This document shows, one piece after another, positions 584 to 34,123 of a stretch of 35,575 nt of DNA (positions are counted from its first letter, which is position 1; each line of letters starts with the position of its first letter). Location: the IMG/VR virus record IMGVR_UViG_2579779007_000007; one strand, written 5' to 3'. The notes under the pieces were generated by a model, which worked only from the letters and a program-made list of their open reading frames with translations, was not told the DNA's origin and searched no databases. The position numbers and the translations under genes are program-made. The stretch is from a virus. Lineage: Duplodnaviria > Heunggongvirae > Uroviricota > Caudoviricetes.

Positions 584-1363
584 TTACTCTGCGTCTACCA
601 TGTCACATGCAAATTGAGTGTGTTTATATTCAGAATCAAATTTTGGTTCAATTACTTCAAGACGCATGTCACCTTTTTTGCTTACCCAGATGTTATAAGT
701 GTTAACACGTCCAATAGCATCCTGTTTGGATTTACCTTCCATTGCGTTTGGATTCTCTTTAGATGGCTTGAGACTTGATTTATAAACATCATACTTGTCG
801 GAATACACAAAAGATACAGGAACATCGTCTACCATTTTGATCTTAAGTTTACCGCCGTTATTATCAAAAGTTTTGTTTCCGTAGAGTTTATCTTTTACAG
901 CTTCTGTTTCCTCACCATCGATAACTTTCCATGTAAATTTTGTAGTACATGCGTAAATCGCGGTAACATTCAGTTTCTTTACTTCTTCCTGTTTCGGTTG
1001 TTCTTCTTCAATCTTCGCAGAAGTCTCTGAATCGCTCTCTGACGCGGTTTCTTCTTTAGATAATACATTCATCAAGTTTTGGATTTGAGCGTTGTATACA
1101 GCCTCCAGTGGCTGAATCTGCCCGATATTGATCATTGTATCACGAACAGTTTTATTCCAGTTGCGTTGCTCTTGTTTAAGAGACGGATCAATCTTAACAG
1201 CCTTAACATATACTTCATGAAGTTTAGAATCCAGTGCGGAGATTGACTCATTAGCACAAATAAACTTCTCTGATTTGGTTATAGCCTTAGTGCAATCAAA
1301 GGACGCAGCATCAGCACCGAAAGCAGTAGCAGAAAGCACGATAGCAGCGATAATGTTTTTCAT
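584..1363 (-). CDS. secreted protein with N-terminal DUF1311 (LprI-like, lysozyme-inhibitor family) domain and an unknown C-terminal domain
   Basis: 259 aa ORF with signal peptide MKNIIAAIVLSATAFGADAA. Motif C..A.T..E..IC...L..LD..L...Y followed by QR.W...RD is typical of DUF1311. RBS AGAGG upstream. Confidence 0.5.
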   Translation of the reverse strand: MKNIIAAIVLSATAFGADAASFDCTKAITKSEKFICANESISALDSKLHEVYVKAVKIDPSLKQEQRNWNKTVRDTMINIGQIQPLEAVYNAQIQNLMNVLSKEETASESDSETSAKIEEEQPKQEEVKKLNVTAIYACTTKFTWKVIDGEETEAVKDKLYGNKTFDNNGGKLKIKMVDDVPVSFVYSDKYDVYKSSLKPSKENPNAMEGKSKQDAIGRVNTYNIWVSKKGDMRLEVIEPKFDSEYKHTQFACDMVDAE

Positions 1364-1721
1364 TTTATACCTCTTTTGGTATGGACTGACTTTTAGATGC
1401 TTACTTTATTGATTTTTGATATTTTTTCAATTATTGGGATGAGATTTAGTAATTAAATTAAGAAATTAATGCTTGACAAATTAAAAAGGTACTGTTCCAC
1501 GGATGAAATAAAGGGAGTTTTCGGCACCCCGGTATTTGATACGCGTGTGAGATTTTAAAACGTGATCAGTGCAGTCCTAGCGCGGTTGCTACGCGACTAT
1601 TAACCCACTTCCTAGCCCTTACCATTACTGGATCTTTCCCTTCGTTAGAATGCGATTTAGGCGCTTAGATTGTGCGTAAAACCAATAAATAAAATTACGC
1701 AAATTTAATGGAGGATAACCA

Positions 1722-2276
1722 ATGAAAGAAGAATTAACCCTTACAGAAATTTCCCGTTTATACGGCTATTCATTGAATGGTGGCGCTAAGCGATGGATAG
1801 AAAGGGGATTGCCATTTAACACCAATACCCGCCGCGTGCCAGCCAAAGAAGGAACAGAATGGGTCTTGAAAAATATTATCAACCCGCTTAAACAAACTTC
1901 TATCAAAGAACAAATCGATGTAGAGAAATTACGCCGTGAACGTGCTTTGGCAGATGCAGCCGAACGAGAGAACCAGGAAAAAATGAATCTCCTGATTCCT
2001 GTCGGTTATGTAGAACAGGAACTAGCGGAATATTGCGGGAAAGTGAAGCAGACTATTTTGCAGATCGCCACAATTGACGTTTTGGAAGTTCTCGAATCTG
2101 CCACCGACCAGAAAACATTGAAGAACAAATTAAGGGAGATCATCGAGCGTCGTTTAAATGAAGTAGGGGACTTGTTCGAAAATGCTGATTTGGGAGAAGA
2201 CGAGGAAGAAGAATTACCATTAATGGATGAACCGGAAGAAGAACCAGAAGAAGACGATGAATTTGATGTGTCTTAA
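1722..2276 (+). CDS. lambda Nu1-like terminase small subunit (putative)
   Basis: 184 aa. N-terminal winged-HTH-like segment, central EKLRRE..AL.DA segment resembling lambda Nu1, acidic C-terminus. RBS GGAGG. Pairs by family with the gpA-type large terminase at 8493. Confidence 0.5.
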   Translation: MKEELTLTEISRLYGYSLNGGAKRWIERGLPFNTNTRRVPAKEGTEWVLKNIINPLKQTSIKEQIDVEKLRRERALADAAERENQEKMNLLIPVGYVEQELAEYCGKVKQTILQIATIDVLEVLESATDQKTLKNKLREIIERRLNEVGDLFENADLGEDEEEELPLMDEPEEEPEEDDEFDVS

Positions 2277-2966: not shown

Positions 2967-2992
2967 GGGACTCTTCGGAGTCCCTTTTTTTT
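2967..2992 (+). terminator. intrinsic terminator, possibly bidirectional
   Basis: GGGACTC-ttcg-GAGTCCC hairpin followed by eight T. It abuts the stop codon of the minus-strand gene 2991..3233. Confidence 0.6.
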
Positions 2993-3233
2993 ATGCAACA
3001 ATTCGAAGTGTAAGTTTCTTATGTTGTGTAGGTTTAGTTTCATTTCGCCACTCAGGGAATACATGATCCATCATAACCGCATTAGTCTCATCAATCAGCT
3101 TTAAGGACTTTCTCAACGCCTTATTATCAGCTTTAAGAGTTTTAATCTCTGATTCCATCGCTACCATTCTTTCTTTCATTTTGGTAATTTCTAACATCAG
3201 ATTACCCAGAAATTCTTTGTTTTGATTCATCAT
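2991..3233 (-). CDS. hypothetical coiled-coil protein (80 aa)
   Basis: ORF with RBS GAGGGGTGAA. Heptad-rich sequence. Lies 16 nt downstream of the 333-aa gene on the same strand. Confidence 0.45.
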   Translation of the reverse strand: MMNQNKEFLGNLMLEITKMKERMVAMESEIKTLKADNKALRKSLKLIDETNAVMMDHVFPEWRNETKPTQHKKLTLRIVA

Positions 3234-3248
3234 AGATTCACCCCTCTA

Positions 3249-4250
3249 TTAAGCTGCGTATGCGTAGGCGCTGTAGTTGGTGTCGTAGATAGCGTCATGC
3301 AGTGCCATCTGTGCTTCGCGGATCTCGTCTTCGTTTACTTCAATCTCTTCTTGTTCTTCTTCGGTATCTTCCCAAGTGGTTTTGAATTTAGCCATAAAGT
3401 TATTGCGCAGGGATTCAAAGTTAGTAACAGGTGCGGATTTTTCTTCAACCGGAACTACTACCGGATCAGCTTCTTTCTGTTCTTCCTGTTCTACTTTTTC
3501 ACCATTACCCCAGCGATAGTTAAGGAGTTCTTCCAGTTCTTCATCAATGGATTTTTCTTCAACTGCTTCAACTTCAACCGCTGCTACTTCGAAAGTGGTT
3601 TCCTGTGCTGCCAGTTCAGCTTTCAGAGATGCGTTTTCAGCTTCCAGTTCAGCAATGCGTGCTTTCAGTGCTTCAACTTCGGAAGATTCAACCACTGCAA
3701 CTTCTTCTTTAACTTCTTCAACTACTACCGGAGCAACTTCTTTCTGTGCTTCTTTTTTGCAGAAGAAGGAGGAAGTAACCTGTAATGCGTGGTTGTAGAA
3801 GGAACCGCCTTTAGCGGTGTTAACAGTACCAGAAACATCCTTTACAGTGGATTCGGTAGCAACAGTACGGAAGCGTTTTGCGACTTCCTGGGTCTCTACG
3901 CCGTATTCGTTACGCTTGCTCTTGTGATGCATTACAGCACGGAAGCCGGAAGCAGTTTTAACAACAGCCAGATAGTAAGTTTCATCGGCTTTAACAGCAC
4001 GAGCGAAGCAATAAACGGATTCACCTTCTACCAGTGTAGGTTTAACGTGACGTTTGTCGAAACGGTTAGTGATCTGCCATTCAGCACCGTCTTTGATGCC
4101 AGCATTCTGACGCATTTCGGTCAGAGTCTTACCGGATACTACTTCAAAGGATTTGTCTTGTTTGCTTGCTTTACCTTCCATGACGGTAATGTTCAGTTTG
4201 CCGTTGGATTTAATAAACAGGTTGAAGGTGATGCGCTTAGAATTTTTCAT
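3249..4250 (-). CDS. hypothetical protein: N-terminal globular domain, central coiled coil (EALKARIAELEAENASLKAEL), acidic C-terminal region
   Basis: 333 aa ORF with RBS GGAG. Coding-like composition. No family recognised. Confidence 0.6.
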   Translation of the reverse strand: MKNSKRITFNLFIKSNGKLNITVMEGKASKQDKSFEVVSGKTLTEMRQNAGIKDGAEWQITNRFDKRHVKPTLVEGESVYCFARAVKADETYYLAVVKTASGFRAVMHHKSKRNEYGVETQEVAKRFRTVATESTVKDVSGTVNTAKGGSFYNHALQVTSSFFCKKEAQKEVAPVVVEEVKEEVAVVESSEVEALKARIAELEAENASLKAELAAQETTFEVAAVEVEAVEEKSIDEELEELLNYRWGNGEKVEQEEQKEADPVVVPVEEKSAPVTNFESLRNNFMAKFKTTWEDTEEEQEEIEVNEDEIREAQMALHDAIYDTNYSAYAYAA

Positions 4251-4295
4251 TTATAAATACTCCTGAATGCTGTGTTAGTTTTAATTGTTCATATC

Positions 4296-4330
4296 AAAAG
4301 CCTCCTTGCGCCAACAGGGAGGCTTTTTTA
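4296..4330. terminator. bidirectional terminator-like hairpin between the 60-aa and 333-aa genes
   Basis: AAAA-GCCTCC-ttgcgccaacag-GGAGGC-TTTTTT: an A-run before and a T-run after the stem. Confidence 0.4.
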
Positions 4331-4367
4331 TTTTTAAAGCCATCATATAATTCTCAGTGAAAGGTTA

Positions 4368-4550
4368 TTACCAGACCTCGGCGGTAATCTTTACTTTAAT
4401 ATCATACTTCTTTAAGAGTTTGTGGAAGGTTGATTGATCAATACCTTCACCTTTAAACCATTCACCCATCACTACATCAGGTGTCAGTTCAAAATAACGC
4501 TTTGCCATTTCTAAAACGATTTCACGAGTGAACTTAACAGGTCGTGCCAT
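4368..4550 (-). CDS. small HTH DNA-binding protein (60 aa)
   Basis: Strong RBS AGGAGGA. Pattern FTREIVLEMAKRY...GIDQSTFHKLLKKY resembles IS/phage-type HTH. Confidence 0.5.
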   Translation of the reverse strand: MARPVKFTREIVLEMAKRYFELTPDVVMGEWFKGEGIDQSTFHKLLKKYDIKVKITAEVW

Positions 4551-4907
4551 CTTATATCCTCCTAAATCTGGAATAATGATTTCTTAAAAAAGAGCTTTTC
4601 GCTCTGAACAATTCTATTTATAAAATGTTTTTCGAAAAACCCTGTAAAACCACTGTATATCCGATCAGTGGGAGCACGAATTGCTAAAGAGAAGATTAAT
4701 AATTAATCAATTCGTACATTATTCAATCGAATAAGCACTGTATGTTTAGCCAGTTCTGTATGAATTAACAGTGAGTCAGGGGATTTTCAGAAGTGAACAA
4801 TCATTTCATGCATGTATTTATACACGAAAAAATCTTGCGTATCATCAATATGGGGATTGTTTCGAAAATTTCAACCCCTACCAACGAGAAAAAGCATAAA
4901 ATAATCC

Positions 4908-4921
4908 TTGACAGTTGTCAA
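4908..4921. promoter_or_regulatory. palindrome TTGACA-gt-TGTCAA (back-to-back -35-like hexamers or operator)
   Basis: Perfect 6-bp arms. A leftward -10 candidate TATGCT lies 17 bp away on the minus strand, positioned to drive the 4550-to-2991 cassette. Confidence 0.3.
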
Positions 4922-4946
4922 TACACTTGATCTAAGCGAGAAATGA

Positions 4947-4969
4947 CTATCAAAATTTTTGTGTGAAAA
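4947..4969. repeat. direct repeat copy 1: CTATCAAAATTTTTG-TGTGAAAA
   Basis: Near-identical 22-23 bp copy at 5096..5117. A DnaA-box-like TTATCAACC sits between them at 4983..4991. Confidence 0.5.
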
Positions 4970-5095
4970 TGGCGGATAACGATTATCAACCTTTATAACC
5001 TATTATAGCACGGCGACCTTTTGATAATTCTTTTTAAATCATGCATTTACGGCGGTTTTTGGTGATTTTCTGGTTAAATAATATACAAGAATTTT

Positions 5096-5117
5096 CTATC
5101 AAAATTTTTGATGAAAA
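5096..5117. repeat. direct repeat copy 2: CTATCAAAATTTTTG-ATGAAAA
   Basis: See copy 1. This copy directly abuts the iteron array. Confidence 0.5.
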
Positions 5118-5118
5118 A

Positions 5119-5239
5119 CCTACACTACAAACCTACGCTTTAAAGGGATTGGCCTACACTACACTAGCCAGTAAACCTACACTATAACACCCTCAAACCT
5201 ACACTATGAAACCTACACACCTACACTAACCCTACACTT
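5119..5239. repeat. iteron array: about 8 direct copies of CCTACAC(T/G)(A/T) in about 120 bp
   Basis: Copies start at 5119, 5132 (variant), 5153, 5176, 5198, 5212, 5220 and 5231. Several spacings are 21-23 bp. Preceded by an AT-rich tract, inside a 1.27-kb stretch with no ORF of 60 aa or more. Confidence 0.7.
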
Positions 5240-5584
5240 CAATCTCATAAGTGTATGATCTTGAAAGACATTTCACCCCACAGACCATAGAATATAAAAT
5301 TCGAACTAACGTTCTCCTTTTTGCTCGTTTTCTCTCACTACGTTCAAGAAAGATCTCGCAAAAAGAATACGGCGTAGCCGTGCGCGAAGCGCCCATCAAC
5401 ACCTTCTAAGACCTGCAAGCAGGATTCGAAAGGGATTGGATAGTTCGCTTCGCTCACGTTCACGCCTACGGCGTTCACTCGCTTTTGAAAGGATTTTCTT
5501 AGAAAGGGATTTAATACTAGTTACTAACTGATTCTAGTAAACGAACGAAGTGAGTAACAATCACTTTCTAGAAAGGTATTGGTT

Positions 5585-5613
5585 ATCCCTTCGGGATTGC
5601 AACCTTCGGTTGC
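5585..5613 (+). other. two tandem GC-stem hairpins with TTC(G) loops (candidate structured RNA element)
   Basis: ATCCC-ttc-GGGAT immediately followed by GCAACC-ttc-GGTTGC. No clean T-run follows. Confidence 0.35.
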
Positions 5614-5817
5614 TAAATTGCTTCCTGATTATTATTTCTCCAAAAGAAAGATTCTTATATTCTAAAGATACTTCTTCGTTTTGATGATGATTTAATCAAA
5701 CCATGAAGGAGGGCTTTAGCCCGACTGAATACAATCACCTTTCATAATAACAAGAATTTTCTCTTTATAAATAATAGTGAACTTACTTGATTCACTTTCT
5801 TTTAGAGGATTTCCACT

Positions 5818-6285: not shown

Positions 6286-6320
6286 GTTAGGTCAACCCTT
6301 TGGCGTCTTGTCAAGGGGTA

Positions 6321-6349
6321 TTGACAAAAATTTCTGACTTTTTTATGAT
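6321..6349 (+). promoter_or_regulatory. sigma70-like promoter TTGACA-17 bp-TATGAT
   Basis: Consensus -35, 17-bp spacer, 5/6 match at -10. An inverted TTGTCAA lies just upstream (6309..6315). Positioned to drive the 6408 ORF and the Rha gene. Confidence 0.5.
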
Positions 6350-7540: not shown

Positions 7541-7798
7541 TCAAATTCCTGTTGCTTCTACCATTTCACCATCAACCTGAACAAAGAATTTCAAATCAAC
7601 TTTATGAAGGGATTTGTATAGCTGGGCTATGGATAAGCCATGCTCATTTAATACCCGCTCTTTGTTCTCTTTACCTTTCGGTGCTTGATAGTACGCTTTT
7701 ACAATCGCTGCCAGTTGTTCACGATTAAAACGGGCAGGGCGACCGCGAGTAGCTTTAGTAGTCATAGTCATTTTCTCCAAATTAAAGTGAATGTTCAC
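7541..7798 (-). CDS. small DNA-binding protein (85 aa), HTH-like
   Basis: TRGRPARFNREQLAAIVKAYY...GLSIAQLYKSL pattern. Starts 2 nt after the stop of the upstream 201-aa gene. Confidence 0.5.
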   Translation of the reverse strand: MNIHFNLEKMTMTTKATRGRPARFNREQLAAIVKAYYQAPKGKENKERVLNEHGLSIAQLYKSLHKVDLKFFVQVDGEMVEATGI

Positions 7799-7800
7799 CT

Positions 7801-8406
7801 TTATTTAGAGGACTTACATTTTATCGGAAAAAGTTCTCCATCGTCAACCGACATAAAGAACTCTGCCTTAATCCCGTACTTCTTCAACCGTGAATAATAT
7901 GTACCCCGACTAATATCAACCTTGCGCAGCACTTCGAAGAACTCTTTAGGATTCCTGTAATAGTGGCTATATCGCACGTTAGCGAGTTCTACAAACAATT
8001 CCCTTGTATCACCATAGCCTTTCTTGAAAGCCACGTTACGATAGCGTGTAATGGCATGATTCAATCTCTTCTGTTTAAGCACTTCCCTGATCGGCTTCCA
8101 CTGCAACCGATAGATAGGACCGTCATCAATGCGATAATAACGCTTGATATCAAAATCAAACCAATCTCGGACTCTCCGAAACTCTGTATGTGATGTTCTA
8201 TGCTTCTTAAAGAAGTTGTGAACGTCTCTATAGCCATTATCACGGTAAAATTCTATTAAAATCTCTTTCGCTTCCTCACGGCTAAACCCAGATGTTGTGT
8301 AATCGGTCTTTAAGTGCTTATGTTTTACTGGCAAACGATATTCATGATCGGTACAACAAGACAAGGCTAATTCTACTTCATCTCTTTGTTGCTGATTAAT
8401 TAGCAT
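7801..8406 (-). CDS. hypothetical basic protein (201 aa) with C-terminal HTH-like segment
   Basis: Rich in R/K/Y. C-terminal ISRGTYYSRLKKYG is HTH-like. Divergent from the large terminase gene. Confidence 0.55.
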   Translation of the reverse strand: MLINQQQRDEVELALSCCTDHEYRLPVKHKHLKTDYTTSGFSREEAKEILIEFYRDNGYRDVHNFFKKHRTSHTEFRRVRDWFDFDIKRYYRIDDGPIYRLQWKPIREVLKQKRLNHAITRYRNVAFKKGYGDTRELFVELANVRYSHYYRNPKEFFEVLRKVDISRGTYYSRLKKYGIKAEFFMSVDDGELFPIKCKSSK

Positions 8407-8492
8407 ACACCCTCCTTAAATCTTAATACCGTATTTATCAAAATATCAACAATTTAATAAATACCTTCATATTTCGTAATGAGGGTAATTAC

Positions 8493-10400
8493 ATGAAACT
8501 GATTTCTAATAAGGCAAAATTAAAAAAGATTCTCAGAAATGCAGCCAAATATATTACGCCACCGCCTAAACTCCTTCCATCGGAATGGTGCGAAGCGAAT
8601 CTAACGCTAGTCGATGGTCCTCGTGCTGGGGATAAAGTTAAATTGCTGTCATTTCAGAAAGGCATGATTGATGCTCCTTTCCTTGAGAAGAAAAAGAAGT
8701 ACGTTTTTTGTACGAGTGCGCAGATCGGAAAGACGACCATCATGTCAGGGATCATGTTTAACCAGATGGCAAACGATCCGTGTAATATCATTATCGGGCA
8801 AAGTACCGCTAAAGAAGTGGCTATGTACTTGAATACTAAGATCCGTCCTTCTATTGAAGCATGTCCGGCATTACAGGAAGTGGTAACAGATAAGAATGAT
8901 CGTAATGCGGTAAACAACAATAACCAGATTCAGCTAAAAACAAACCATTTCCTTTACATGGTTTCTTTGACCAGTCCTTCAAGTTTGCGCGGGCGTACTG
9001 CCAAGTTAGGGATTGTAGACGAATGCGACGCAGCAACAATCACCGAAGAAGGTTGCCCGGTGGCACTAACTGCAAACCGTTTAACTACCTTTGGTGATGA
9101 AGCTCGATTGATTGTTTCTAGTACCCCGACCAATAAGCTGGGAATCATTAACCAGCAATGGTTATCAAGTGATATGCGTATGTTTTTTGTTCCGTGTCCT
9201 CATTGCGGGGAACACCAGGTGATCGAGTGGGAAAACGTTCAATTTGAATGGCGTAACATTGATGGTAAGAACTTACCCGATCCTGATACCGCTCGTTATA
9301 TTTGCCCCCACTGTAAGAACGCATGGACAGAAGGGGAACGAATCAGGGCAGTAGCGCAAGGCGAGTGGAGAGCAACCCGTGAAAGTGAAGTAGCAGGATT
9401 CTGGATCAGTCGTCTGTATTCACCTTTCAGCACGATCCGCGCTTGTGTGGTTGATTTTAGTCATGCGTGGCAATCCTTTGATTTACAATCCTTTTTTAAC
9501 ACCGTGTTAGGCAAGGTATACGACGATCAGGACACGGCAGTAGAAGCAAATGAACTGGAACAACTCAAAACAGATGTTTCTATCGAGAATATCCCTGATG
9601 ACGTGATTTTCTTGTGTGCGGGTACTGACCAGCAATTAGATCGCGCAGAAACTACGATCATGGGCGTGGCAAAGGATAAGATTTATATTCTGGATCACCG
9701 CAGCTTTTACGATCATAACTGTGAACGATATGAATCACCTGTATGGGATAGATTAATCAACTTCCATAAAACCAAATTTACTACTGTATCGGGTGATCGT
9801 GTTCCTATGCTCGCCAGCTTCCTTGATACATCGAACGGTCGATTCACTCAAGCTGGATACCGTATTTGCGGCAAGTGGAAGAACTTACACGCTATCAAAG
9901 GTAGTTCTGCTGGTAACGCTCCGATCATTCCGGTTAAACCTACCCGCACAGGTGGTCATGAATTGCTTATGCTGGGCGTTAACGTTGGGAAATCCGCTGT
10001 TCGTGAAATGCTGGTTAGAAACCTGAAAGATAATCCTCATATTGGCTTAGAAATATCAGAAACCATTCCTGATGATTATCTCGATCAGCTTTTGAGTGAA
10101 TCCATCAAGCGTACTACTACTGGCGTGCGTTGGGTGAAAAATCCAGGTAGTACCCGAAACGAGGCTCTCGACTGTCTGGTTTATAGCTATGCTGCTTCTC
10201 GCTACGTTCTTTCAAAAATGTCATGGGATAAACTCATTGCAATGAAAGACAGCTTAAACCGTGTTGTCGAAGAATCCGTAGAAGCTCCTAAATCGCAATC
10301 TGACGAGCAAATCGAAGAAAATAAGCCAATCACACGACCACAACGTAAAAACATCGCCAGACGCCCAAATAGAGGCCGTAGCTGGGTAACATCGTTCTAA
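8493..10400 (+). CDS. terL: terminase large subunit, lambda gpA family
   Basis: 635 aa. Recalled gpA-family blocks: [45 protein letters not shown]. Confidence 0.9.
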
Positions 10401-32394: not shown

Positions 32395-34074
32395 TTAAAT
32401 TCCAAATTCTTGTAATGGACCTGGTATTTCTTCTTCTGGTTTCCAGTTCTTATCTGTCAGCATGTCTAAACATGGATGCAGAACAAGCCCGTTACTCTCC
32501 AGAATCTGCCTATCATTGATAGTCTTCAAATCAACGAAGATCCGGCCTTTCCTCGGTCCTCTTGAATTTTCTATTACAACTCTCTGGGTCTTGCCATCGA
32601 TGTATTCCAGTACAAACAAGTTTTTGTACTTGTCAATCCTGCTACACCCGATCCGTTTTAGAGCTTGCTTAATCTTAAACCGGACCTTAATGCGATCCTC
32701 GTTGTAAACATCTTCTAAATCAAATTCTGCGAGCTTCTCCCAGCCTTGAGAGTCAACAGAATACATTTCCTCTTCTGCCATCTTAAGTTGATTGTAGAGT
32801 GTTTCACGCTCGCTATTGAGGGTAGTAATCTGATCGGCTAGCTCCTTCGTTGCTCCTGTCATAGCAGAAAGGGTAATCAGGTTATCAATCTTGCGTGATA
32901 TTTCATCAATCTGTACTTTCAAAGCCGGAACCGGATTAGCCTTATCTTCAGCAATCCAGATTTTATCAGCCAGCAATTGCAATACAGCTTTCTCTAATTG
33001 GTCGCCGCGAAAACTCCAGTTTGTATGCACACATTCAATACGACTAGAGCGCATTGCATCGCATGAATAACGATATTGGTTAGGCCGTCTGTTTGTTCCT
33101 TTCACCTTAACCATAGCGGAACCGCAATGTTCACATTTCAATAGACCAACACCACTAAGCAAGGGAATAGGTTTAGCTTCTTCTTTGTCTCCAAAGTTAC
33201 ATGCTCTAACACCAATGCTTTTCTTAAGGTGATAAAACTCAGCGTCATCTAGCACACGAGGATAATAATCCTTTAACTCATACTTAACGCCATCTACAGA
33301 GATTTCCTTGATACCAATCAAAGCGCGGGTATGGAACAACCTTTCAATCATTGCCCGTGACCAGTTTGAATGCCTCTTGTGACTTGCGGCTGGTGGTGGT
33401 GTGTATGTCGCGTTAAGGTGATCCAGTATCTCGGCGGTTGACCGTCCATTCCTGCGTAATTCCACAACTTCCTGAACAATAGGGAAGAAGACCGGATGAG
33501 GAAGCACATAACCAGATGTGGTATCAGTCCACCACATATTCTTTCCAATTTCCTCGATTGCAACAGCCGGATTTTGTGGATTTTCTTGATGAGCTTTAAT
33601 CTTAATCAGTGCGCTTGAGTTAGTACGATTGCGCTTAGTCTGGCTTTCCTCATTACCACGGATGAATAAAAGGATGGAGAACATCAGGTCCATCGGGTTA
33701 GCGGTAACAGTATCAAGCGAGTAGATCTTGTTATCCATGCCAGTAACAATGGTTATCCCCCTACGGATGATTGAAAGGAATAACTCCTGCGCACTGACAA
33801 TATCGGCACGGGATAAACGGTCCAAGTTTTCGATGAATAGCCAGCTACCAACAGGAACGGATCTACCTATTGCATCAAGGAAACGAGATAGCGCCCCTGT
33901 TTTGGAGTTAGCACCCTTAAACGCAGATACACCCAGATCCTGATAATCATTTACCAGTTCAAGGTCATACTTTACCGCAATCTCTCTAGCCATCCTGATT
34001 TGTCGTTCATAACTCGAACCATCATTCTGACGCATAGACGAGAAGCGAATATACGAATACAGTTTAGTTTTCAT
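32395..34074 (-). CDS. large serine recombinase (candidate integrase)
   Basis: About 560 aa. N-terminal resolvase-type motif YIRFSSMRQ, recombinase domain, zinc-ribbon cysteines (CEHCGSAM...YRYSC), C-terminal coiled coil. ATG start at 34074; the ORF track uses a TTG at 34089. Confidence 0.85.
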   Translation of the reverse strand: MKTKLYSYIRFSSMRQNDGSSYERQIRMAREIAVKYDLELVNDYQDLGVSAFKGANSKTGALSRFLDAIGRSVPVGSWLFIENLDRLSRADIVSAQELFLSIIRRGITIVTGMDNKIYSLDTVTANPMDLMFSILLFIRGNEESQTKRNRTNSSALIKIKAHQENPQNPAVAIEEIGKNMWWTDTTSGYVLPHPVFFPIVQEVVELRRNGRSTAEILDHLNATYTPPPAASHKRHSNWSRAMIERLFHTRALIGIKEISVDGVKYELKDYYPRVLDDAEFYHLKKSIGVRACNFGDKEEAKPIPLLSGVGLLKCEHCGSAMVKVKGTNRRPNQYRYSCDAMRSSRIECVHTNWSFRGDQLEKAVLQLLADKIWIAEDKANPVPALKVQIDEISRKIDNLITLSAMTGATKELADQITTLNSERETLYNQLKMAEEEMYSVDSQGWEKLAEFDLEDVYNEDRIKVRFKIKQALKRIGCSRIDKYKNLFVLEYIDGKTQRVVIENSRGPRKGRIFVDLKTINDRQILESNGLVLHPCLDMLTDKNWKPEEEIPGPLQEFGI

Positions 34075-34081
34075 ACCATTT

Positions 34082-34123
34082 CCAAACAAAAACGCCCCTA
34101 CCGCGTATTATAACGATAGGGGC
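34082..34123 (-). terminator. minus-strand terminator upstream of the recombinase
   Basis: On the minus strand: GCCCCTATCG-loop-CGGTAGGGGC followed by GUUUUUGUUUGG. The loop contains TATAAT. Confidence 0.4.

Follow-up and report, generated by a model that had tools for sequence, protein, structure and literature searches.

Among described packaging systems, the closest to the locus reported here is that of phage lambda, with its cosQ-cosN-cosB site and its terminase of gpNu1 and gpA. In lambda and phage 21, cosB and the N-terminus of Nu1 together determine packaging specificity. Terminases of the gpA type are, as a family, associated with cos packaging; in the well-studied headful phages the pac site usually lies inside the gene for the small terminase subunit (TerS), terS. 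A more distant example of the gpA type is found in Burkholderia phage Mica, whose large subunit (TerL) is 28% identical to the one described below and for which PhageTerm gives a cos site with a 13-nt overhang (PMC7883832).

Our study concerns a stretch of 35,575 nucleotides, analyzed as a whole and referred to here as the window, in which a conserved non-coding block of 250 bp lies directly upstream of a remote relative of nu1. On balance, we think it probable that this block (positions 1472-1721) combines the terS promoter with a lambda-like cosN/cosB terminase recognition region. We infer three things in this reading: that TerS binds there, that it binds for packaging and not for autoregulation, and that the DNA is cut at 1519-1530.

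The prophage family and its small terminase

The window is essentially one prophage of ~35.3 kb inserted in the E. coli gene hicB, the 5' part of which occupies positions 1 to ~330; the 3' remnant of hicB lies beyond the far end of the prophage in NZ_CP119011, where the same prophage is found at 4297608-4332892. The first gene from attL encodes an LprI-like moron (584-1363, minus strand) and is separated by an intergenic stretch (1364-1721) from ORF184, the small terminase gene terS (1722-2276, plus strand). Next come two small membrane ORFs with terminators, a group of minus-strand genes (2991-4550), a gene-free stretch of 1.27 kb (4551-5817) and plus-strand genes that include one for a Rha-like protein. 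Two minus-strand genes (7541-8406) then stand just before terL (8493-10400, plus strand), whose product is of the lambda gpA type (Pfam GpA_ATPase, PF05876, 1.9e-55; GpA_nuclease, PF20454, 2.7e-44). Genes for a lambda-type portal, a protease-capsid fusion, tail and lysis lie downstream of terL, and a large serine recombinase is encoded at 32395-34089 on the minus strand. The window contains no tRNA genes and, at Rfam gathering thresholds, no Rfam match.

Relatives were found in E. coli (64 of 5426 complete genomes), in Salmonella, in Proteus and in a few metagenome contigs, with TerS identity falling to ~52% and an identical gene order in all of them. They make up an unstudied family of temperate phages of ~35 kb that is present in ~1% of complete E. 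coli genomes. The family integrates by means of the large serine recombinase, either into hicB, as in the window, or into ycdX, with the core of the att junction near CCCGAA(T/C)GTAGTCAACCC (window ~320-352; loci L038, L027-L031 and L039); one Logan contig (L039) preserves the un-integrated order of recombinase, a 190-aa gene, 400 nt and terS. A search of the literature on hicB or ycdX prophages returned nothing relevant, known phages gave no DNA match to the intergenic DNA, the phage collection searched held no cultured relative, and a scan of GTDB genomes with a TerS profile yielded no confirmed locus. The only protein-level relative among known phages is DCP80 (PQ671644; TerL 43% identical), which we dropped from the comparison as a mixed record. 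This 141-kb GenBank record (loci L002/L032), classified as a T4-like Gaprivervirus, has the look of a chimeric assembly; it opens with ~22 kb of genes of the present siphovirus type and carries rIIA twice in opposite orientation. Its apparent ORF184 homolog (E=5e-3) sits among T4-like genes and was not used.

The initial annotation had flagged DNA 100-200 bp upstream of a Nu1-like ORF as a possible cos or terminase-binding region, and both the position and the assignment of the ORF were borne out. ORF184 matches the PHROGs family phrog_57, 'terminase small subunit', over residues 2-169 (E=1.5e-11), and a profile of 13 ORF184 sequences aligns with lambda Nu1 (NC_001416 191-733) over residues 4-92 with an hhalign probability of 95.4% (E=1.7e-8) and 25% identity over 88 columns. 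The same profile gives weak PDB matches to 1j9i, the DNA-binding domain of Nu1, and to 6hn7; Pfam and NCBIfam returned no match to ORF184. Its AlphaFold model (pLDDT 73, pTM 0.35) shows a small N-terminal helix-strand unit, a helix of 50 residues and a helical bundle, followed by a tail that is acidic and disordered; a Foldseek search of the PDB with this model gave no significant match. The predicted layout is that of Nu1, with a winged-helix region at the N-terminus, then a long coiled helix, and a tail of this kind. From these profile matches ORF184 is accepted as a remote Nu1 homolog and the putative small terminase.

Downstream of the terS stop codon lie a conserved GC hairpin (~2329-2347), two ORFs for hydrophobic proteins of 57 residues (2306-2479 and 2533-2706) and two strong terminator-like hairpins (2865-2881 and 2966-2985), which a terminator scan also called (2865-2985). 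With this hairpin and these terminators, terS makes up a short transcription unit by itself, which converges on the minus-strand group.

The conserved block upstream of terS

The homology that relatives share upstream of terS has a sharp left edge at 1472, at the sequence CTTGACA, in 61-64 E. coli genomes and in the IMG/VR and Logan loci. To the left of this position the DNA differs, with at least four unrelated upstream contexts meeting the same start of homology. The block so delimited by comparison (1472-1721, plus strand) is linked to terS and keeps its length, the distance from CTTGACA to the ATG being 239-254 nt in 12 divergent relatives with TerS identity down to 52%. Its identity to the window is 62% in Salmonella and 60% in locus L028, as against 41% and 39% at the four-fold degenerate sites of terS; for the distal part (1472-1562) the corresponding values are 59% against 32% in locus L040 and 57% against 16% in Proteus. 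Judged by this comparison, the block is evidently a functional element under purifying selection. Satellites that might borrow the site were considered and set aside, the block being found solely with this phage (61 genomes). A metagenome scan with GCGGTCGCTACGCGAC, a motif of the block discussed below, gave 120 matches, mostly due to chance, and the two real ones were uninterrupted.

What had drawn attention to this DNA was its description as a GC-rich island, and this did not survive measurement. The GC content of segment 1535-1620 is 47.7%, where windows of 86 nt average 41.5% (sd 5.9), and since 17% of all such windows match or exceed it, the trigger of the finding is no more than would be expected by chance. 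The wider segment 1490-1720 is ordinary at 42.9% GC, a value reached by 41% of windows, and a contrast exists only with the adjacent AT-rich DNA at 1364-1500 (25.5% GC). Both of the strings that had been quoted as GC-rich exist, with coordinates partly off: AGCGCGGTTGCTACGCG is at 1579-1595, and CACCCCGG is at 1525-1532, some 10 nt to the left of the quoted range 1535..1620. A GC content that can be classed as within about 1 sd of the window mean would suit the view that nothing functional resides here and that the DNA is ordinary spacer fluctuating by chance. This view is contradicted by conservation above synonymous sites, the fixed length, the sharp edge and motifs invariant across genera, and we find it hardly credible.

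At its left edge the block holds a perfect -35 hexamer, TTGACA (1473-1478, plus strand), after an A-rich tract. This hexamer, part of a probable terS promoter, is kept in all enterobacterial relatives except Proteus. At a spacing of 17 nt the downstream hexamer reads TCCACG, AATTAC, TAGGGG, TAGGCA or TAGACG according to the relative, never with a T at position 6, and a promoter scan called no consensus promoter at the left edge of the block. From these sequences we read TTGACA as part of a promoter whose class is specific to the phage and whose -10 element is weak, and the block as a promoter followed by a leader of ~210 bp that would hold recognition sites. The window has five copies of CTTGACA, of which four lie in intergenic DNA of the early region (1472, 4907, 6309 on the minus strand, and 6357). 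Near these copies, TTGACAGTTGTCAA at 4908-4921 is a perfect 14-bp palindrome of operator-like appearance, and the copies at 6309 (minus strand) and 6357 flank a consensus-like promoter, TTGACA-N17-TATGAT (6316-6344).

These features bring in the main rival to our reading, namely that the block is purely regulatory, a promoter, operator and leader on which TerS or another phage regulator acts, with cos lying elsewhere, for example upstream of terL. We regard this as possible though doubtful. The perfect, conserved -35 hexamer with its A-tract, whose CTTGACA type recurs at three intergenic sites of the early region, fits such a role, as does the self-contained nature of terS, closed by the conserved hairpin and the terminators. 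So does an inverted repeat, TGCGTAA-N15-TTACGCA (1673-1701, plus strand), which is conserved in all relatives and lies just 5' of the conserved ribosome-binding site GGAGG of terS (1710-1714, plus strand); it overlaps a TAAATA -10-like element and the ribosome-binding region, and may be either an operator or an RNA hairpin. Against a purely regulatory role, 250 bp under constraint would be long for a promoter and operator, and the positions of the -10 hexamer, with its missing T at position 6, are not conserved.

Another alternative is that the block is a structured 5' leader or a small RNA transcribed from the TTGACA promoter and acting on terS translation or stability. A conserved leader of ~210 nt and a hairpin beside the ribosome-binding site (TGCGUAA-N15-UUACGCA) that tolerates G-U pairing in Proteus are in keeping with this idea, which we nevertheless consider very unlikely. 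The fold energy of the block is no better than that of shuffled sequences (z=-0.26), and RNAalifold on 12 sequences returned a single helix of 7 bp (1673-1701) with little covariation, only one of its seven pairs showing a two-sided change that preserves pairing. A search of 1400-1800 at E<=1 gave no Rfam match, and the elements under constraint, being tandem direct repeats, are better suited to contacts between protein and DNA than to helices. None of the small ORFs within the block is conserved, and the ATG of one of 29 aa falls in a variable part. As neither a conserved ORF nor an Rfam family nor an RNA fold accounts for the block, the constraint looks like protein-DNA recognition.

Co-variation of the block with the TerS DNA-binding domain

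The proximal half of the block (1563-1721, plus strand) is a candidate cosB and is swapped in one piece along with the N-terminal half of TerS. This is seen in E. coli phages of class C (L036-L038), which resemble the window in the distal half (1472-1562, 75-87% identical) and in the C-terminal half of TerS (89-93%), and which diverge jointly in 1563-1721 (52-57%) and in the N-terminal half of TerS (nucleotide identity 62-64%). Three elements follow one another at the junction of the two halves. TTTTAAAA at 1553-1560 belongs to a tract that reads TTTYAAAA in every relative, directly 5' of a motif that is specific to the class of TerS. In the window this motif is a tandem half-repeat, CAGTG-CAGTC (1567-1576, plus strand), a candidate R-like binding site for TerS. 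The third element, AGCGCGGTTGCTACGCGAC (1579-1597, plus strand), contains both AGCGCGGTTGCTACGCG and an inverted repeat, GTTGC-TAC-GCGAC; this element hardly varies in the NAAKKW and NGGAKRW classes and is replaced in the PAV(T/Q/N)KW classes.

The tandem motif is replaced by GTGCAGTGCAG, CACTTCACT or GTTWAGTTAAG depending on the class of the TerS recognition helix, and in each of the 33 distinct haplotypes the predicted helix class goes with its motif, which lies ~150 nt before the ATG. Helices of the class T(L/I)NAAKKW go with GGTGCAGTGCAGCC, and GGTGCAGTGCAGCC and the adjacent GCGGTCGCTACGCGAC are invariant in E. coli, Salmonella and locus L028, between which synonymous sites are ~40% identical. 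The window's own class, SLNGG(A/G)KRW, goes with GATCAGTGCAGTCC or GATCACTTCACTCA, in which both half-repeats change together, and the class S(L/I)(P/Q)AV(T/Q/N)KW, which includes Proteus, goes with GGTT(T/A/C)AGTT(A/C)A(G/C)C. The site thus matches the DNA-binding domain of TerS, as would be expected of a cosB that confers specificity, in the form of an association. A search for R-like repeats between the candidate cosN and terS found no clear multi-copy set; the same test misses the R sites of lambda and is therefore uninformative.

The co-variation makes binding of TerS at 1565-1600 reasonably supported on comparative grounds. The suggestion in the initial annotation of a terminase-binding region has accordingly fared well, resting now on a conserved block of fixed length under purifying selection whose motif tracks the TerS helix class; the accompanying, stronger suggestion of a cos cut site draws on analogy with lambda, on a gpA-type TerL with one distant relative reported to package by cos, and on the four clustered contig boundaries described below. 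The association of helix and motif could also stem from physical linkage or from autoregulation of terS. Small winged-helix proteins often regulate their own genes, which would produce the same association and lends weight to the purely regulatory alternative.

Candidate cohesive end and comparison with known cos systems

The speculative candidate for a cohesive end or cosN core is TTTCGGCACCCC (1519-1530), which varies among relatives and shares 1525-1530 with CACCCCGG. This GC-rich core is bracketed by a direct repeat, GGAGTTT (1514-1520) and GGTATTT (1531-1537), on the plus strand (1514-1537 in all), with the consensus GGWGTTT-N9/10-GGTGTTT among relatives; GGTGTTT was tried as a genome-wide motif and proved too degenerate to be meaningful. 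Inspection of 1507-1542 and its homologs showed no two-fold symmetric nick site, as had been observed initially, and around 1519-1530 a count gave 2 symmetric positions out of 12, both for the window and for locus L050. The IHF consensus WATCAANNNNTTR has no match in 1472-1721, the conserved TTTYAAAA tract being present instead.

Boundaries of assembled contigs gather at or near this core. Two Logan contigs from different samples start at aligned window positions 1519 (L051) and 1517 (L044), in phages whose TerS is 91% and 57% identical, respectively, to that of the window. In an ENA contig (L052), unrelated DNA of 59% GC meets phage DNA at 1531, which is 12 nt beyond the L051 start, and another of 17.8 kb (L049) starts with a fold-back whose junction is at 1538-1542. 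The first 100 nt of L049 are an inverted copy of its own positions -98 to -1 relative to the terS ATG; L049 and L052 (the latter in its segment 1-305) are MEGAHIT contigs from a single ENA study, artefactual at the phage ends, and their two junctions are no more than 12 nt apart. Of the six boundaries seen in the 400 nt before terS, four thus fall within 25 nt (1517-1542), a clustering with p ~0.015 by a rough scan statistic calculated by hand, in which three of the four contigs are of one phage lineage (same TerS), two of these are from one study, and the stretch itself is a hotspot of micro-diversity able to break assemblies. The candidate end would be 203-205 nt before the terS ATG, and the left end of lambda is 190 nt before nu1. 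Cleavage at ~1519-1530 is only suggested by these boundaries.

Among contigs of phage length, one of 35,485 bp (L033) is bounded by att and host sequence, another (L198) carries the phage integrated mid-contig, and none ends in the block; a further contig (L199) reaches 1.6 kb to the left of terS. Prophage calls in IMG/VR are cut at gene boundaries, so that their ends say nothing about the ends of the phage.

The spread of the boundaries over ~25 nt, instead of at one base, bears on a further alternative, a pac-type site at which TerS binds and headful packaging begins from an imprecise cut that leaves no cohesive ends. The evidence for TerS binding fits a pac site equally. This TerL, with both the gpA ATPase and the gpA nuclease domains, belongs to a family associated with cos, however, and a site 200 bp upstream of terS is unlike the usual pac inside the gene. 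We judge a pac site quite unlikely.

The position of terL bears on the search for cos, as it lies 6.2 kb downstream of terS with early-type genes between, so that a site next to terS is not necessarily next to the nuclease gene. Otherwise near-identical phages carry either of two TerL alleles that are ~57% identical (loci L005, L017, L037 and L030) and share just the first 14 residues and the last ~80; the same TerS and block occur with both, so nothing in the block tracks TerL. The purely regulatory alternative finds a possible home for cos in the 86 bp upstream of terL (8407-8492), which are 89% identical to Salmonella and 79% to Proteus, the best-conserved non-coding DNA that we compared; they lie between terL and a divergent gene for a 201-aa protein and contain the IHF consensus TATCAACAATTTA at 8444-8456. 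This alternative is weakened by the fact that the available space, ~65 bp, is already largely filled by a promoter-like pair (TTATCA-N17-TAAATA) and two ribosome-binding sites. It also leaves the contig-end cluster at 1517-1542 unexplained, and L049, of which we read the first 3.8 kb, starts in the block and must, by its length and the gene order, run through the region upstream of terL.

Three small proteins encoded on the minus strand lack a family match (7801-8406, 7541-7765 and 4368-4550); those of 74 and 60 residues begin with a (G)RP-x-(K/R)F motif of the kind typical for small proteins that bind DNA, and the 201-aa protein (7801-8406), divergent beside terL, may be a late-gene regulator. 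A gene-free gap of ~1.2-1.5 kb is kept at the position of 4551-5817 in all relatives, and in the window it holds an iteron-like array (5119-5237) of seven exact copies of (A)CCTACAC(TA) on one strand, with about three degenerate copies recognized by eye. The window has 11 exact matches to this motif against 1.9 expected, and none of 100 shuffles reaches 11. The array is likely a replication origin or a regulator array; no replication protein was recognizable near it. The gap was also considered as another location for cos, and its array gives it more the look of an origin.

The combined promoter and cosN/cosB reading that we prefer suggests a model for packaging in this family. The A-tract and TTGACA (1473-1478) would drive the free-standing terS. 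The GC-rich core of ~12 bp (1519-1530), between the GGWGTTT direct repeats, would be nicked by the gpA-type TerL, and ~35-40 bp further on the winged helix of TerS would bind the motif at 1567-1576 and the GC-rich element at 1579-1597. Binding of TerS would anchor the enzyme, so that packaging proceeds rightwards through terS.

A bolder extension of this model, which we think unlikely, treats terS and the 250-bp block as an autonomous, exchangeable packaging-specificity cassette with an asymmetric, direct-repeat cos that is served by two TerL alleles. Such a cassette would sit beside attP, split from the remaining packaging machinery by the whole early region; the TerL alleles would be coupled to it through their short conserved basic N-terminus and the acidic tail of TerS, and the GGWGTTT-N9/10-GGTGTTT repeats would take the place of a symmetric cosN. 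It would amount to a variant of the lambda type in which recognition of the site and cutting are unusually uncoupled.

If the preferred promoter and cosN/cosB reading is confirmed, the block provides the packaging site and the TerS specificity determinants of an uncharacterized temperate phage family, together with three natural specificity classes in which to study how Nu1-type winged helices read DNA. The general picture of cos packaging would be unchanged, the arrangement being an ordinary lambda-like one in an unstudied family. As in lambda, TerL is of the gpA type and TerS is Nu1-like, with a winged helix at its N-terminus; a conserved block of ~200 bp adjoins terS on its upstream side, the candidate end lies at a similar distance from the ATG (~203 nt here, 190 in lambda), and two boundaries are offset by 12 nt (12 nt in lambda); the first candidate TerS site lies ~35-40 bp from the candidate nick, as R3 does in lambda. 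In contrast to lambda, 6.2 kb separate terS from terL, and terS is furnished with a promoter and terminators of its own. The similarity of TerS to Nu1 is only remote, TTTCGGCACCCC as the candidate core bears no relation to GGGCGGCGACCT, and the block has neither an IHF consensus, nor two-fold symmetry at the nick, nor an obvious R1-R3 triplet.

The relation of the family's members to one another recalls that of lambda and phage 21, in that the proximal DNA is swapped along with the N-terminal domain of TerS, the distal DNA and the C-terminal domain staying constant, and in that each of the three helix classes has its own motif; it differs in that specificity is read here from sequence association alone. 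The cos sites of the P2/186 type offer a precedent for terS and terL that are separated or in different transcription units, and hence for a cos that need not adjoin terS. The terminase proteins of P2 belong to families other than those described here, however, and the conserved block of the present family lies beside terS, and not beside the portal gene or terL.
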